In this document: piece by piece, positions 1,370 to 37,181 of the stretch | Layout: each line of letters starts with the position of its first letter | Numbering within the stretch: the stretch's first letter is position 1 | Assembly (NCBI GenBank): GCA_964412525.1 | Contig: CAYPOX010000003.1 | Location: forward strand, 1-54,811 | Length of the DNA: 54,811 nt | Reading direction: 5' to 3' | From: an uncultured Caulobacterales bacterium | GTDB lineage: Bacteria; Pseudomonadota; Alphaproteobacteria; Caulobacterales; CAYPOX01 | Position numbers and translations under genes: made by a program | The notes under the pieces: generated by a model | Told to the model about the DNA's origin: nothing | Databases searched by the model: none | The model's input: only the letters and a program-made list of their open reading frames with translations

Positions 1370-1843
1370 ATGGAACGCATACCCATGACCGCCGCTGGCT
1401 ACGGCATGCTTGAGTCTGAATTGAAACGTTTGAAGAATGTCGAGCGCCCAGCCGTCATCCAGCAAATCGCAGAGGCGCGCAGCCACGGCGATCTGTCCGA
1501 AAACGCCGAATATCACGCGGCGAAGGAGAAGCAGAGCTTTATTGAGGGGCGTCTGCAGGAACTGGAGGACCAAATCGCCCGCGCCGAGGTCATCGACCCG
1601 ACAAAGCTTTCCGGAGAGTCGGTGAAGTTCGGCGCGACGGTGACCTTGGTGGACGAAGACACCGAAGAAGAGGTCAAATATCAGATCGTGGGCGACGTGG
1701 AGGCGGACGTGAAACTCGGCCGTATCTCCATCTCCTCGCCGATCGCTCGCGCGCTGATCGGCAAAGCCGTCGGCGATTCGGTGGAGGTGGCGACGCCGGG
1801 CGGCGGTCGCTCCTATGAAATCTTGATGGTCGAGTATCGCTGA
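1370..1843 (+). CDS. greA: transcription elongation factor GreA
   Basis: 157 aa. Contains [49 protein letters not shown], the typical GreA coiled-coil, plus the C-terminal FKBP-like domain. Confidence 0.95.
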
Positions 1844-1847
1844 CCCC

Positions 1848-2849
1848 CTGCCCGGCCCGGCCTCCATTTGGACCGTCACCGACGGTCGCGCCGGGATTGA
1901 AAACCAGGCTCTGGGTCTGGCCGAGGCGATACGCGCGGAGCGACCGACAGCGACCATCGCGACCAAACGAATCGGTTTGACCTCCCCTTGGCGCGCCGCG
2001 CCCGCGCCGGTCGTGTTGGCGGCGGGAGATCCCTTCAAGCGGCTTGCACCGGGATCGGACACGCTCGCCGCGCCATGGCCGGACATTTGGATCGGGTGCG
2101 GCCGCGCCAGCGTGCCCTTGTCCGCGTCCGCGCACGCTCGCGGCGACAGTCCAGGCATGGTCGTCCAACTGCAGAATCCGCGCATCTCCGCCAAGCATTT
2201 CGATTTGGTGATCGCACCGGATCACGACCGACTGTCCGGACGAAACATCGTGTCGATTCTTGGGGCGACCCACCGTGTCCGCCGTGCGGATGCGCTCGCC
2301 GACGCGGAGACGCTGGCCCCGTTCATCGCGCATCTTCCCCGCCCGCATATCGCGGTGCTGATCGGCGGCGCCACCAAGCGCGCCAAGCTCGACGCGCCGA
2401 CGGTTTTCCAATGGATCGACGCCCTTCACGCCCTGACGGAGACGGGCGCCGGCTTGATGATCACCACATCCCGGCGGACAGGCGCGATGGCCGAGTCACG
2501 GCTGCGCACCGCGCTTGAAGGTCGACCGGTCTTGTTTTGGGACGGGCGCCCGATCGGGTCGTTGGAGAATCCCTATCGGGCCTTTCTTGGCGCGGCGGAT
2601 CATATTCTCGTGACGTCGGAATCGGTGAACATGGCGACCGAAGCCGCCGCCATGGGCAAACCGGTTCATTTTCTCGAGGGCGCAGATCCCTCTCCAAAGT
2701 TGCAACGCTTTCGCGAGGCCTTGATCGAGCGGGGCATGGCGCGCCCGCTCGACCTACCTTTGCAAAGCTGGAAACCCGCCCCGATGGATGAGACCCGGCG
2801 CGCGGCGCACGCGGTCTTGCAAGCGTGGGACGCTCGCGGGCACACTTGA
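1848..2849 (+). CDS. ELM1/DUF1022-family protein (mitochondrial fission ELM1-like); start codon unresolved
   Basis: The conserved family N-terminus IWTVTDGRAGIENQALGLAEAI is encoded at 1866-1931, in the same frame as ORF 1977..2849. That frame is closed by TGA at 1824. Between 1827 and 1866 it contains no ATG, GTG or TTG, only CTG at 1848 and ATT at 1866. Confidence 0.7.
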   Translation: MPGPASIWTVTDGRAGIENQALGLAEAIRAERPTATIATKRIGLTSPWRAAPAPVVLAAGDPFKRLAPGSDTLAAPWPDIWIGCGRASVPLSASAHARGDSPGMVVQLQNPRISAKHFDLVIAPDHDRLSGRNIVSILGATHRVRRADALADAETLAPFIAHLPRPHIAVLIGGATKRAKLDAPTVFQWIDALHALTETGAGLMITTSRRTGAMAESRLRTALEGRPVLFWDGRPIGSLENPYRAFLGAADHILVTSESVNMATEAAAMGKPVHFLEGADPSPKLQRFREALIERGMARPLDLPLQSWKPAPMDETRRAAHAVLQAWDARGHT

Positions 2850-23015: not shown

Positions 23016-23034
23016 TTCAGGCGGAGGCGCAGCG

Positions 23035-23967
23035 ATGAAGCTGCTTTCGGGCAACTCCAATTTGGCGTTGGCGGATGCGATGTCCGATTATCTCGGCGTT
23101 CGGCCCACCAAAGCCAAGGTGCAGCGCTTCGCGGACAATGAGATTTTCGTCGAAATCCAGGAGAACGTCCGGGGGGAGGACGTCTTCGTCGTCCAGTCGA
23201 CGTCCTATCCGGCGAATGACAATCTCATGGAGCTGTTGATCATGATGGACGCGCTGAAACGCGCGTCCGCGCGCCGAATCACGGCGGTGTTGCCCTATTT
23301 CGGCTACGCCCGTCAGGATCGAAAAACCGGCGGCCGCACGCCGATCTCCGCCAAGCTGGTCGCCAATCTGATCACGACGGCCGGCGCCGACCGCGTTCTG
23401 ACCATGGATCTCCATGCGGGCCAGATCCAAGGCTTTTTCGACGTGCCCACGGACAACCTCTTCGCGGCCCCAGTGGTGGAGCGGGACGTGCGCGAACGCT
23501 TCCATGACGAGCGGCTCATGGTGGTCTCGCCCGATGTGGGCGGCGTGGTGCGCGCCAGGGCGCTGGCCAACCGACTGGAGGCGGACCTCGCCATCGTGGA
23601 CAAGCGCCGGGAGAAGGCGGGCGTGTCCGAAGCCATGAACATCATCGGCGACGTGAAGGACCGGGTCTGCATCCTCCATGACGACATCGTGGATTCCGGC
23701 GGCACTTTGGTGAACGCCGGCGAGGCCCTGCTGGAGGCGGGCGCCGCCTCTGTCGCGGCCTATTGCAGCCATGGCGTGCTTTCGGGCGGGGCGGTGGAGC
23801 GGATCGACAAATCCGATCTCATCGAAGTGGTGGTCACCGACTCGATCGAGGCCACCGAGGCGGTGCGCAGCGGCGCGAAGCTTCGCCAAATGAGCGTGGC
23901 CCCCCTCATCGCCGAAGCCATCCGCCGCATCGCCCACGAGGAGTCAGTTTCGAGCCTGTTTGATTGA
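23035..23967 (+). CDS. prs: ribose-phosphate diphosphokinase
   Basis: Contains [48 protein letters not shown] and [10 protein letters not shown] (PRPP loop). Confidence 0.95.
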
Positions 23968-24457
23968 GGGGGGTGCGGGTCCGGGCCCCGCCAATTGGCG
24001 CACCTGCACTTCAATGGAGGCCCGGCCCTCCTTCATGCGCGAAACCAGCGTTTGGTAACGCACGAAACCACCCAACTCGATGGCGATATCTACAGCCGGC
24101 AAGCGCGCGATCACGTCATTGCTTGCATCGTCATCGCGGCCGAATTCGAATGAAACGATCGGGCCTGCGGCGAAACGCTGGGACGGCACGAGATCCAGTT
24201 TGCCGCCCAGCCCGGTCAGATCAGCCTGAAAGCCCCGATAGGCGATGGAGTCCGCGATGAAGGGCACGAGCTGGAGATCCTCTGCGCCGGTTTATTCCGG
24301 CAAGACCGCCGCACCAAAAGCGACAAACCCGTTCGGCTCTGGGTTGGGCGGCGGCTCGCCAGCATCTTGTGCGCGGGCCACGCCCGTGCCTGCCAACAGG
24401 ATCATGGCGATGGCGGCCGGGCTGCGGCTCCCTGACGCAAGTGAGAATGACTTGCAT
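23944..24457 (-). pseudogene. MipA/OmpV-family outer-membrane protein remnant (in-frame TAA, probable +1 shift after ATG, 3' truncation)
   Basis: ORFs 24292..24642(-) and 23944..24267(-) are in the same frame, separated by TAA (complement of 24292-24294). The read-through gives GFVAFGAAVLPE*TGAEDLQLVPFIADSIAYRGFQ...GPIVSFEFGRDDD...IELGGFVRY. This matches the N-terminal half of MipA proteins, with the stop falling where family members usually have PEY. A clean signal peptide KSFSLASGSRSPAAIAMILLAGTGVARA/QD lies one base out of frame from the ATG at 24457-24455. The homology ends near 24000, abutting prs. Confidence 0.55.
24437..24455. promoter_or_regulatory. perfect 6-bp inverted repeat GCAAGT-N7-ACTTGC upstream of bfd-bfr (candidate operator)
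   Basis: GCAAGT (24437-24442) and ACTTGC (24450-24455) flank GAGAATG. The repeat lies about 32 nt upstream of the bfd ATG. Iron-storage genes are commonly under iron-responsive repressors. No consensus match is claimed. Confidence 0.3.
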
Positions 24458-30286: not shown

Positions 30287-31117
30287 TCAATGTTCGACGT
30301 TGCGCCAAAGCCGCTTGTAGGACAGGTACAACAAGCCCGCGAGAATGACGAGATAGATCATCGTCACCAGTCCCGTCGCCTTGCGCTGCTCCAATTTGGG
30401 CTCGGCCGCCCAATGGAGAAACGCGGTGACGTCCTTGGCCATCTGATCCGGCGTCGCCTCCACGCCGTCATCATACTCGACGATGCCTGGATAAAGTTGC
30501 TGGGGCATGCCGATCCAACCGCCCGCATAATAGGGATTGTAGTAGAGCCGCTGGGCGAACTAGTCGTCTCTGCCTTCCGGCGGCTCCGCGTCATATCCTA
30601 TGAGCAGCGAGTAGATGTACTCGGGACCGCCCATCCGCGCCTTCGTGATCAAAGACAGATCGACCGGGTAAGCGCCATTGTTGGCGGCGCGGGCCGCAGC
30701 CTGATTGGCGAATGGGGACAAAAACGGATCGGTCGCTTTCCGGGCGCGCATGAACATGTCGCCGTAATCATCCGGACCATCTTCGATCTGATAGGCCCAG
30801 CTCGACGCGATCGTCTGAACATAGGGGTTCTCAGCAGGCGACACGCCCGCTTCATAGAACGGCCCGCCCTTTTGACCCAGATTGCGGTAATAGACGTGCT
30901 CCATTCCGTGGCAGTTCGCGCACACATTTTGGTACACTTTAAGGCCGCGCTGAAGCTGCGCCTTGTCGAACTTCCCAAAGGGCCCATCGAAGCTGAAGGC
31001 GATTTCCTTCGGATGTTTCGCTTCATCCGCGGCGAACGCGCCGCCGGTGAAGGCGGCGGCCGCCAAGGCCGCCGCTGCGATGCTTCGCGTCACTGTCGTC
31101 ACTGTCATCGCCATCAC
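30287..31117 (-). pseudogene. petC: cytochrome c1 of the bc1 complex, interrupted by an in-frame TAG (complement of 30560-30562)
   Basis: The N-terminal piece (30560..31117) has a signal peptide and the CANCH heme site. The C-terminal piece is in the same frame: LYYNPYYAGGWIGMPQQL...DDGVEATPDQMAKDVTAFLHWAAEPKLEQRK plus a TM anchor. The only interruption is ...PPEGRDD-TAG-FAQRLYYNPY... Confidence 0.85.
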
Positions 31118-32376
31118 TCCGCCGGAGCGGCCGCCGCGCCGCCCGATTTCTGCGCCCGCGCCAACACAGCCTGCGAAATCGAGACCGGCAACGGGTTCGG
31201 TTTCTCCACCATGCCGAGCACCGGCAAGATCACGAGGAAGTAGGCGAAATAGTAGATCGTCGCGACCCGACCGATGGTGATGTACGGCTCCTCAGCGACC
31301 GCGCCGCCGACCCACATCAAGACCCCGAACGCGATGACCAGCAGAATGAAGCACTGGCGCGCGACCGGCCGATAGCGCATGGATCGCACCTTCGACGTGT
31401 CGAGCCAGGGCAGCGCGAACCAGATCAGGATCGAACTGAACATGGCGACGACGCCGCCCAGCTTGTCCGGAACCGCCCGCAGGATCGCGTAGAACGGCAG
31501 GAAGTACCATTCCGGCACGATGTGCGCAGGCGTCACCAACGGATCCGCCGGAATATAGTTGTCCGGGTGACCCAACGCATTCGGCATGTAGAACACGAAG
31601 GCCGCAAACAGGATCACGAACAGGGACAGCGCGAAGAAATCTTTCACCGTGTAGTAGGGGTGAAACGGCACCGTGTCCTTCTTCGACTGAACGCCGACGC
31701 CGAGCGGATTGTTGTTGCCCGGTACGTGGAGCGCCCAAACGTGCAGCACGACGACGCCCAAGATCAGGAACGGCACCAGATAGTGCAGTGAGAAGAACCG
31801 CGTCAGGGTCGGGTTGTCGACCGAGAAGCCGCCCCACAACCAGGTGACGATCGAGTTCCCGATGAATGGGATCGCGCCGAACAATTGCGTGATCACGGTT
31901 GCGCCCCAAAAGGACATTTGCCCCCAAGGCAGCACGTAACCCATGAACGCGGCGGCCATCATCAGCAGGAAGATGACCACGCCAAGCATCCAGAGAATTT
32001 CCCGAGGCGCTTTGTAAGACCCGTAATAAAGGCCTCGGAAAATGTGTATGTAGACGGCGAGGAAGAACATGGAGGCGCCGACCGCATGGATGTAGCGCAG
32101 CAACCATCCATAGTTCACATCGCGCATGATGCGTTCGACCGATGCGAAAGCGGTGTTCACATCCGCCGTATAGTGCATGGCCAGCACAATCCCCGTGCCG
32201 ATCTGCACCATCAAGCAGAAGCTGAGGATCGCCCCAAACGTGTACCAATAATTCAGATTCTTCGGCGCTGGAAAATCAACGAAATTATCGTAACCCCAGC
32301 GAACCAGCGGCAGACGGGTGTCGAGCCATTTCTCAAACCCCGTTTTCGGCTGGTAAGTGCTCTCTCCGCTCATCAC
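31114..32376 (-). CDS. petB: cytochrome b
   Basis: 420 aa. Contains [45 protein letters not shown] and [14 protein letters not shown]. The probable start is the ATG at 32373. Confidence 0.95.
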
Positions 32377-32456: not shown

Positions 32457-33008
32457 TCAACCAATCTTGATGCGCGTGTCGGACACGTATTCGTATGGCG
32501 GCAGATCCAGATTGCGCGGCGCGGGCCCCTTCCGGATGCGCCCCGCCGTGTCGTAGTGGGAACCGTGGCACGGACAGAACCATCCGTCATAGTCCCCTTG
32601 CTCGCCCAACGGCACGCAACCCAAATGGGTGCAGATGCCGACCATGACGAGAAACTCCTTCTTGAGCTGCCCGTCCGGTCCCGCGATGACGCGTTCATCG
32701 TCCGCCTGCGGATCCGGCAAGGACGAAAGCTCGACCGACTCCGCCGCCGCGATCTCTTCCGGCGTACGCCGCCGGATGAAGATCGGCTTGCCGCGCCAGA
32801 TCGCTTTGATCTGTTGGCCGACCCGCACGCTCGAAATGTCGACCTCGATCGACACAAGCGCGCGCACCGCCGCCGACGGGTTCATTTGATCAATGAACGG
32901 CCAAGCGACAGCCGCGCCGCCGACCGCCGCGAACGCGCCGGTCGCAATGTAGATGAAATCACGTCGCGTCTCGCCCGCGCCGTGTTCGTCCGTCGCCGCA
33001 TCCGTCAT
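32457..33008 (-). CDS. petA: ubiquinol-cytochrome c reductase Rieske iron-sulfur subunit
   Basis: Tat-like N-terminus (TRRDFIY) and Rieske boxes CTHLGC and CPCHGSHYD. Confidence 0.95.
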   Translation of the reverse strand: MTDAATDEHGAGETRRDFIYIATGAFAAVGGAAVAWPFIDQMNPSAAVRALVSIEVDISSVRVGQQIKAIWRGKPIFIRRRTPEEIAAAESVELSSLPDPQADDERVIAGPDGQLKKEFLVMVGICTHLGCVPLGEQGDYDGWFCPCHGSHYDTAGRIRKGPAPRNLDLPPYEYVSDTRIKIG

Positions 33009-35172: not shown

Positions 35173-35288
35173 CCTTGTCGCGAATGCGACCGAGCGTGCA
35201 TCGCCATTAAGGGTTTGTTTTCCTGATGGCCGCAACGTGAAGTGGTCTGAGCGCGAGTCGCGCCTGACAGCGGCCAGAAGGACGACGA

Positions 35289-35723
35289 ATGTTGAACGCG
35301 GCGGTTAAAGGCGACCCATCGATTCTTGATGACGATCCCTCGGACCAGGACTTGGTCCGCGAAGCCGTCGAAATGGTTCTTAACGGGGCTGCGATCGGGG
35401 ATCCGCAACCGGTCGCGCGCCACACCATGCGCGACGCCTGCTGCGTCTTGATTCATCACGGGGGCGCCGTCTCCGTAAGCGTCGCCGATTTGGCGGGCGC
35501 GGTGTTCGCCGCCGGGGAAACGGCGCGCGAGCCCGAGATCGTCTGGCGGCGGCTGAATTGCGACGCCCAAGTGGCGGAAACCGAGGCGGATTTCACAGAA
35601 GCCGGCGGTTCACGCTTGCGCGCCAATATGACCCTCATTCGCCATGGACGGCGCTGGCGGGCGACGACGATCGTGTTGCGCACGGTGGAGACGCCGATTC
35701 GCCGTCAAGGCGCGACGCACTGA
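35289..35723 (+). CDS. hypothetical small protein (similar layout to 34759..35172)
   Basis: 144 aa. It has an acidic N-terminus, and its C-terminal ...GGSRLRANMTLIRHGRRWRATTIVLR parallels the upstream protein. Confidence 0.5.
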   Translation: MLNAAVKGDPSILDDDPSDQDLVREAVEMVLNGAAIGDPQPVARHTMRDACCVLIHHGGAVSVSVADLAGAVFAAGETAREPEIVWRRLNCDAQVAETEADFTEAGGSRLRANMTLIRHGRRWRATTIVLRTVETPIRRQGATH

Positions 35724-35777
35724 TCTTCGTCTGCGGCATGGTTGCAGCGCGCGTCGCGCCGCGGCACACACGTCGTC

Positions 35778-37181
35778 ATGAGCCAAGACGATGACTCCAC
35801 GAATGAACCGCCCCTCACGGTGGGCTGGGAAGAATGGGTGCGGCTGCCGGAACTGAAGATTCCGGCGATCCGCGCCAAGGTTGATACGGGCGCGCGAACA
35901 TCCGCGCTGCACGCCTTCAATGTGACGCCCTATCGCGCCAAAGGGCGCGACCGGGTGCGGTTTGGGCTCCATCCCCTCTTTGATCGACCGGACTTGGAGC
36001 TTTACTGCTCCGCCCCATTGATCGACCAGCGGGAGATCACGAGTTCGAACGGCGAGGTCGAACTTCGCTACGTCATCGAAACCACGATCGAACTGGGCGG
36101 ACGCCGGTGGCCGATCGAACTCTCTCTCGCGAACCGCGAGACGATGGCGTACCGCATGCTGCTCGGCCGCCAGGCCCTGAACGCCCGCGCGGTGGTCGAT
36201 CCGGAACGGTCATGCGTTCAAGGCAATCCGGATTTGGACGCTCTCTATGCGTCCCACGGCGAAGGCGGCGATCCGTCACGCACGCTGCGCGTGGCGCTCC
36301 TCACCCGCGAGCCGAACAGCTATTCCAGCCGTCGGATCGTGGCGGCGACCGAGGCCCGCGAACATATGATCGAAGTGGTCGATACGGCGCGATGCTCCAT
36401 CGCGATCGACGCGGCCACGCCGGAGGTCCGTTTCGACGGCCGCGTCTTGCCCCGATATGACGCGGTGATCCCAAGGATCGGCGCCTCGATCACCCATTAC
36501 GGGGCCGCAGTCGTCCGCCAGTTCGAATTGACTGGCGCTTATGTGTTGAACAGCTCGGACGCGATTTTGCGCTCCCGCGACAAATTGTTGGCTCACCAAT
36601 TGATGGCGCGCTTCGGGATCGGCATGCCCAAGACCGGCTTCGCCCGCAGCCCGAAAGACACCGCCGACCTCATCGGCTCCGTCGGCGGCGCGCCTTTGGT
36701 GGTGAAGCTGTTGTCCGGCACCCACGGCCAGGGCGTCGTTTTGGCGGAGACGGCGAAGGCCGCCGAATCGGTGATCGCCGCGTTTCGCGGCTTGGACGCC
36801 GACTTCCTGGTCCAACGTTTCGTGAAAGAGGCCAGCGGCGAAGACCTTCGCTGCTTCGTCGTCGGGGGCAAGGTCGTCGCGTCCATGCTGCGCAAGGCGG
36901 CCGAGGGCGAATATCGCGCCAACCTCCATCGGGGCGGCGTGGCGCTGAAAGTTCGCCTTTCCAAGGAAGAGCGCGACACCGCGCAACGCGCCGCCCGCGC
37001 CCTTGGGCTTCAGGTTGCGGGCGTCGACATGTTGCGGGGATCCGAAGGCCCAGCCGTGCTGGAGGTGAATTCATCTCCAGGGCTGGAGGGCATCGAGAAG
37101 ACCTCGGGCAAGGATGTCGCTGCGCTGATCGTCGAGCACTTGGAACGGCGCGCGCGCCCGCCGCGCCGGCGAAAAATCTGA
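35778..37181 (+). CDS. rimK: fusion protein: DUF785 retropepsin-like (RimB-type, 'ATP-dependent zinc protease') domain + RimK-family alpha-L-glutamate ligase
   Basis: The N-terminal [33 protein letters not shown]...RFGLHPL...LLGRQAL is the DUF785 domain. From about residue 180 there is a full ATP-grasp: [83 protein letters not shown]. There is no stop between the two parts. An alternative start lies at 35742. Confidence 0.8.

Follow-up and report, generated by a model that had tools for sequence, protein, structure and literature searches.

The stretch of DNA analysed here (the window, 54.8 kb in length) carries on its minus strand a petA-petB-petC operon. Here, the genes for the Rieske protein and for cytochrome b lie directly upstream of petC and on the same strand. 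The features of the operon are as follows, with the codons and residues of petC counted from the ATG at 31114.

32457..33008, minus strand: petA, the Rieske iron-sulfur subunit, 183 amino acids, intact (TIGR01416 positions 2-176 of 176, E 1e-68).
31114..32376, minus strand: petB, cytochrome b, 420 amino acids, intact, with its TGA stop at 31116..31114 (matches to the cytochrome b families).
31117, 31114 or 31108 (alternative starts) to 30287 (end), minus strand: petC overall (reading of the frame).
30563..31117, minus strand: N-terminal piece of petC, 182-185 codons depending on the start chosen (reading of the frame; 253 bits against a cytochrome c1 HMM).
30908..30922, minus strand: CANCH haem-attachment motif, with C65, C68 and H69 (invariant columns).
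30560..30562, minus strand: in-frame TAG, codon 185, inside ACTAGT (reading of the sequence).
30290..30559, minus strand: C-terminal piece of petC, 90 codons, in the same frame as the N-terminal piece (match to PF02167, HMM).
30506..30508, minus strand: codon of M203, aligned with the sixth axial haem ligand (alignment to chicken c1).
30317..30373, minus strand: C-terminal hydrophobic stretch, putative membrane anchor, at approximately residues 248-266, GLVTMIYLVILAGLLYLSY (aligned to the anchor region of the homologues).
30287..30289, minus strand: terminal TGA stop of petC, after the C-terminal piece.

In its minus-strand frame, petC reads ...LLIGYDAEPPEGRDD-TAG-FAQRLYYNPYYAGGWIGMPQQL..., with the TAG at 30562..30560. 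A first-pass annotation of this DNA had proposed that the open reading frames 30560..31117 and 30287..30508 lie in one and the same frame, with nothing but the TAG between them, and direct reading of the sequence agrees. The same annotation had placed the TAG 17 codons before the axial Met; 17 codons do indeed intervene, but the Met itself is the 18th codon past the TAG. Its description of petA and petB as intact is borne out by the end-to-end match of petA to TIGR01416, by the cytochrome b family matches of petB, and by the small number and conservative nature of the deviations at conserved columns in both. The ATGA overlap that it reported between petB and petC, however, does not exist. The actual junction is GAG-TGA-TGG.

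This junction offers three candidate starts for petC. A GTG at 31117 overlaps the petB stop as GTGA, an ATG at 31114 has one base in common with that stop, and an ATG at 31108 is preceded, 8 nt upstream, by GGAG. The ATG at 31108 is the likeliest start of petC; it is also the start of the 182-amino acid product recorded for the contig (P0001), which carries PF02167. The N-terminal piece holds the haem-binding domain together with an N-terminus that, judged by eye, looks like a Sec signal peptide.

By its sequence, petC belongs to the cytochrome c1 family. An HMM of 119 homologues gives the N-terminal piece 253 bits, the C-terminal piece 148 bits, and the two joined 408-409 bits. The C-terminal piece matches Pfam PF02167 over positions 134-218 of 219 (E 7e-33), and c1 chains from the PDB match at E 4e-56. 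The CXXCH motif by which haem is attached is present, its columns (C65, C68 and H69) being invariant. M203 aligns, also in an invariant column, with M160 of chicken c1, the known sixth haem ligand of that protein; the codon for M203 lies past the TAG. In Rba. capsulatus, haem c1 has M183 as its sixth axial ligand (PMC2807467). In all homologues, the anchor aligns with the hydrophobic stretch GLVTMIYLVILAGLLYLSY, which is likewise encoded past the TAG and whose hydrophobicity suggests a membrane anchor helix. Thus, PF02167, the HMM and the alignment to chicken c1 all agree with the earlier proposal that the part downstream of the TAG is the conserved c1 block, with its Met ligand and its anchor. 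What petC does not have, of course, is one uninterrupted frame, the TAG standing at 30562..30560. The recorded gene is a disrupted copy.

The TAG aside, petC does not have the look of a decaying gene. Taking as conserved those columns that are kept in at least 93% of 120 c1 sequences, petC deviates at none of 65, while its homologues deviate at 0-6. For petA and petB, conserved columns were defined with relatives from 160 fetched loci. Here, petB deviates at two of 143 columns, both times conservatively, and petA at one of 55, again conservatively. The marks of an old pseudogene are missing from petC: the lesion is single, no conserved residue is lost, and the codons past the TAG are preferred ones. 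An operon that is otherwise under purifying selection implies, in turn, that the change to TAG is very young. The first-pass annotation had seen no decay in the approximately 90 codons past the TAG, and the absence of any deviation at the 65 columns, with Met ligand and anchor both in place, says the same.

The TAG sits in a variable loop between GY..PPEG and YYNPY. Its column was located by counting back from YYNPY in 113 homologues, where it holds T (41), E (33), D (11), Q (10), K (7) or S (3). Nearly half of the homologues (53 of 113) hold E, Q, K or S, residues with codons one substitution from TAG, since GAG, CAG, AAG and TCG are each a single step away. In mitochondrial c1, the column corresponds to V142 of the chicken protein and to a Ser in two others. 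The closest relatives have D or E, and this makes GAG (Glu) the likeliest ancestor of the TAG codon.

The five codons that follow the TAG (TTC GCC CAG CGG CTC) are all preferred, with RSCU values of 1.0-1.6. The loop that they help to form is somewhat odd. Before YYNPY (around 30536..30550, minus strand, codons 189-193) it has 16 residues, against 12-15 in the 113 homologues, and four codons past the TAG it has an Arg (CGG, one substitution from GGG) where 103 of 113 homologues have Gly. The length of the loop and its Arg could mean that the local sequence is not fully reliable.

The TAG also lies within the only ACTAGT of the window (a SpeI-type palindrome, 30559..30564). CTAG as such is approximately 9-fold under-represented in the window: base composition would predict 183 occurrences and a Markov estimate 34, but only 20 are observed. 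On a rough estimate, chance alone would place about 9% of TAG codons in such a 6-bp palindrome, and the ACTAGT context is therefore not significant. Local repeats are limited to two words of 11-12 nt that recur elsewhere in the window; each lies at least 16 nt upstream of the TAG, and no such repeat covers the TAG.

The quality of the contig can be judged from the genes that surround the operon. A Pfam and NCBIfam survey of approximately 50 open reading frames over the 54.8 kb finds approximately 45 genes that are covered in full by their profiles and free of frameshifts. These include greA, a trxB-like gene, uvrC, lgt, prs, the gene for ribosomal protein L25, pth, ychF and apt, as well as the gene for MTA phosphorylase, trmL, hemF, a rimK fusion, sppA and a moxR-like gene. 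Among them, too, is carB, of which only the 3' part is present, cut by the start of the contig. The profile of hemF is covered to position 270 of 294; this C-terminal shortfall was considered as damage and rejected as natural, the protein ending ...ILMSLPPEAKWP. An open reading frame opposite prs (23017..23943, minus strand) was set aside by Pfam as antisense. Further, the frameshift-free survey leads us to reject the idea of a generally poor assembly. The contig is of good quality, and the TAG in petC is an isolated, fresh lesion.

Two of the surveyed regions have features of their own. The open reading frame 35742..37181 (plus strand) fuses a retropepsin-like putative ATP-dependent zinc protease (PF05618, "Zn_protease") to RimK_N and the RimK ATP-grasp domain; upstream of it, in the same frame and with a TGA between them, lies the open reading frame 35268..35723, which matches no family. 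Between greA and the thioredoxin-reductase-like gene lies the open reading frame 1827..2849 (plus strand), which matches "Mitochondrial fission ELM1" (PF06258) over positions 1-304 of 304 (E 4e-86).

The sole other disrupted gene in the window is a remnant of a gene for a MipA-like outer-membrane protein, at approximately 23944..24405 on the minus strand, with an in-frame TAA at 24294..24292 (...AAVLPE-TAA-TGAEDL...). MipA proteins presumably carry Tyr at the position of this TAA. The Pfam MipA profile matches the remnant over positions 2-95 of 221 only, a region that spans the TAA, and the C-terminal half is missing where the open reading frame abuts the 3' end of prs (23967). The remnant is probably an old pseudogene. 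Its in-frame TAA indicates that this genome does accumulate real nonsense lesions.

The lineage from which the window comes (G+C 64%) appears to be undescribed. The best identity found for its c1 is 58% in a protein search of 5.8 billion sequences; contig scans give 50% as the best in GTDB species genomes and 54% in JGI metagenomes. Its cytochrome b and Rieske protein reach 70% and 63%, respectively. The best matches come from Maricaulales, Caulobacterales and Rhodobiaceae-like bacteria. Look-ups of the exact product find the petC protein in no other contig, and the genome, metagenome and protein collections searched hold no close relative and no second assembly of the petC locus. In the literature, we found no report of a natural nonsense allele of c1; one match on "premature stop codon" concerned znuC rather than c1.

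The simplest account of these observations is that a single-base substitution turned a sense codon in a variable periplasmic loop of petC into TAG. The ancestral codon would most likely have been GAG (Glu) or CAG (Gln). Translation ending at the TAG would deliver an exported fragment of approximately 156 amino acids, which would retain CXXCH. Both the sixth ligand and the anchor are encoded past the TAG, and so a stop there removes them, as had been claimed. A c1 without its anchor is not known to assemble. Mutants in the sixth ligand have an altered haem c1 potential, and low-potential forms of c1 are non-functional (PMC2807467). Having neither the Met ligand nor the anchor, the fragment could not support a working bc1 complex, and none could form from this allele. 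The allele would be dominant in the sampled population, and the cell would presumably live on another quinol-oxidising route.

One alternative to this account is that full-length c1 is still made, the TAG being decoded through an amber suppressor tRNA, as pyrrolysine or by leaky read-through. The TAG does lie in a variable loop where nearly any residue is probably tolerated, the part downstream of it is perfectly preserved, and a tRNA with a CUA anticodon could lie in the genome outside the window. However, of 160 related loci taken from genomes and metagenomes, 159 have an uninterrupted c1 and one is cut by the end of a contig; none of the 159 complete c1 genes thus contains a stop, and the TAG is not conserved. 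TAG is, further, a normal terminator here: apt, two genes (1.2 kb) downstream, ends with a TAG exactly where the NF002634 equivalog ends (positions 9-182 of 182). No other in-frame TAG occurs in the approximately 45 profile-checked genes of the window, and the 54.8 kb contain no tRNA, no match to Rfam and no pyl gene among the Pfam matches. The 96 nt that begin with the stop fold no better than shuffled sequences (z 0.47; equal or better folding in 135 of 200 shuffles). Last, we know of no TAG reassignment or pyrrolysine in Alphaproteobacteria. Decoding of the TAG is therefore most unlikely. No more credit can be given to a compensated double frameshift or local misassembly, in which approximately 13-20 nt around the TAG would be out of register and ...RD?LVRPGLYYNPY... 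would be the correct reading. Over the TAG, the alternative frame gives LVRP, the removal of one C restores GL before YYNPY, and LVRPGLYYNPY fits the family motif RPGL. Against the c1 HMM, such a variant gains 5.9 bits over the in-frame reading in which X takes the place of the stop, and when 15,950 double-shift variants were scanned over the gene, the best gains were all at the TAG site. Both directions of shift gain there, however, so that the gains reveal no more than a poor score of the in-frame loop. The alternative frame also relies on very rare codons (CTA twice, RSCU 0.09, plus CCA, GCT and GTT), while the in-frame codons are preferred, and this difference of 7.5 bits cancels the gain in HMM score. 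Two indels are needed where one substitution is enough, and no other gene of the window has an indel. The LVRPGL reading was rejected on the balance of +5.9 HMM bits, -7.5 bits of codon usage and two indels. Also rejected was a small inversion over the TAG: among 2094 stop-free variants, none gains more than 3.6 bits. The rejection of the double frameshift, the unchanged frame and the preferred frame-0 codons past the TAG support the earlier view of the lesion as a substitution rather than an indel. A c1 that is naturally split into two separate polypeptides that assemble may be all but dismissed. An ATG does open the downstream open reading frame, at 30508, but this ATG is the ligand Met itself, and as the first in-frame start past the TAG it makes a two-polypeptide c1 not credible. 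Nothing like a Shine-Dalgarno sequence can be seen upstream of it, the downstream piece would be without YYNPY and without an export signal, and neither the 160 related loci nor the top 120 database matches include a split c1.

Taken together, all readings besides a real allele and an artefact deserve only a small share of belief. The artefact is another matter. In this reading, the organism would have a sense codon, and the T of TAG in this one-off metagenomic contig would come from an error in base calling or consensus, or from the mixing of strains. An error predicts a gene that is perfect on either side of the stop, which is what is found; the petC protein is known from one contig, and no second assembly of it was found; and the Arg in place of a 91%-conserved Gly, four codons downstream, could mark a locally poor stretch. 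On the other side, approximately 45 checked genes in 54.8 kb have no frameshift and no other fresh stop, indicating a low error rate, and only about one random substitution in 20, by our estimate, gives a stop codon. So many clean genes make an error-rich assembly unlikely, and this tips the balance slightly towards a real allele. Against the real allele it must be said that a null in a core respiratory gene without further decay would have to be extremely recent, just like an error. A genuine young null allele and an error of consensus or base calling predict, of course, the same sequence, and with no second assembly and no close relative in the collections searched, these tests do not separate the two. 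Of the three explanations offered by the first-pass annotation, then, suppression has become unlikely, given the unconserved TAG, the end of apt, and the want of a downstream structure or of a tRNA in the window, while recent nonsense mutation and artefact continue to stand side by side. An artefact is a serious possibility, to be held with rather less than even confidence. A real recent null allele is slightly more likely than a sequence error, and to the reading of the TAG as a genuine, very recent loss-of-function allele of petC, made by a single substitution, we assign a probability of roughly 0.5. The lesion is a point change, with no decay about it and no recoding signals. It has the look of an ordinary point lesion rather than of a recoding signal, be it a sequence error or a very young knockout allele.

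These features can be set beside known systems. Like the c1 of alphaproteobacterial and mitochondrial bc1 complexes (PF02167; PetC of Rhodobacter capsulatus, chicken c1, bovine CYC1), this one belongs to a petA-petB-petC operon, and has a signal-peptide-like N-terminus, a CXXCH, a YYNPY...G-M-P block, a WAAEP, a C-terminal anchor and all 65 of the highly conserved columns. Unlike them, it has one TAG (0 of 159 complete relatives), a 16-residue loop, an Arg for Gly, and no more than 58% identity. It resembles young nonsense pseudogenes and segregating bacterial null alleles in having a single premature stop, no other damage and intact flanks, but differs from typical young nonsense pseudogenes in being a core respiratory gene that is known from one contig. 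As written, its product would be without the Met ligand, as are the engineered Met183 mutants of Rhodobacter c1, except that these change one residue while the petC product would lose the whole C-terminal third, including the anchor. All that it has in common with programmed amber decoding (pyrrolysine, suppressor tRNAs, TAG-recoded phages) is an in-frame TAG in a gene whose function would need read-through. In contrast to such systems, its stop is not conserved, a TAG terminator is nearby, the checked genes have no other in-frame TAG, the window has no tRNA, and no structure follows the stop.

A lone premature stop in one metagenomic contig is an ordinary phenomenon, and neither a real allele nor an error opens a new question. 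Read-through, unlikely as it is, would be the one case of wider interest, for then an uncultured, deep-branching alphaproteobacterium would use a suppressor tRNA, or some other read-through mechanism encoded outside the window, to make full-length c1 from an apparently broken gene. Should the TAG be an error, the recorded 182-amino acid "cytochrome c1" is a truncated call, and its annotation should say that the gene is disrupted or of low quality. If the TAG is real, however, the bc1 complex has just been lost from a natural population of an alphaproteobacterial lineage that appears undescribed. The cells must then respire via another quinol-oxidising route, which would be a small point on respiratory flexibility.
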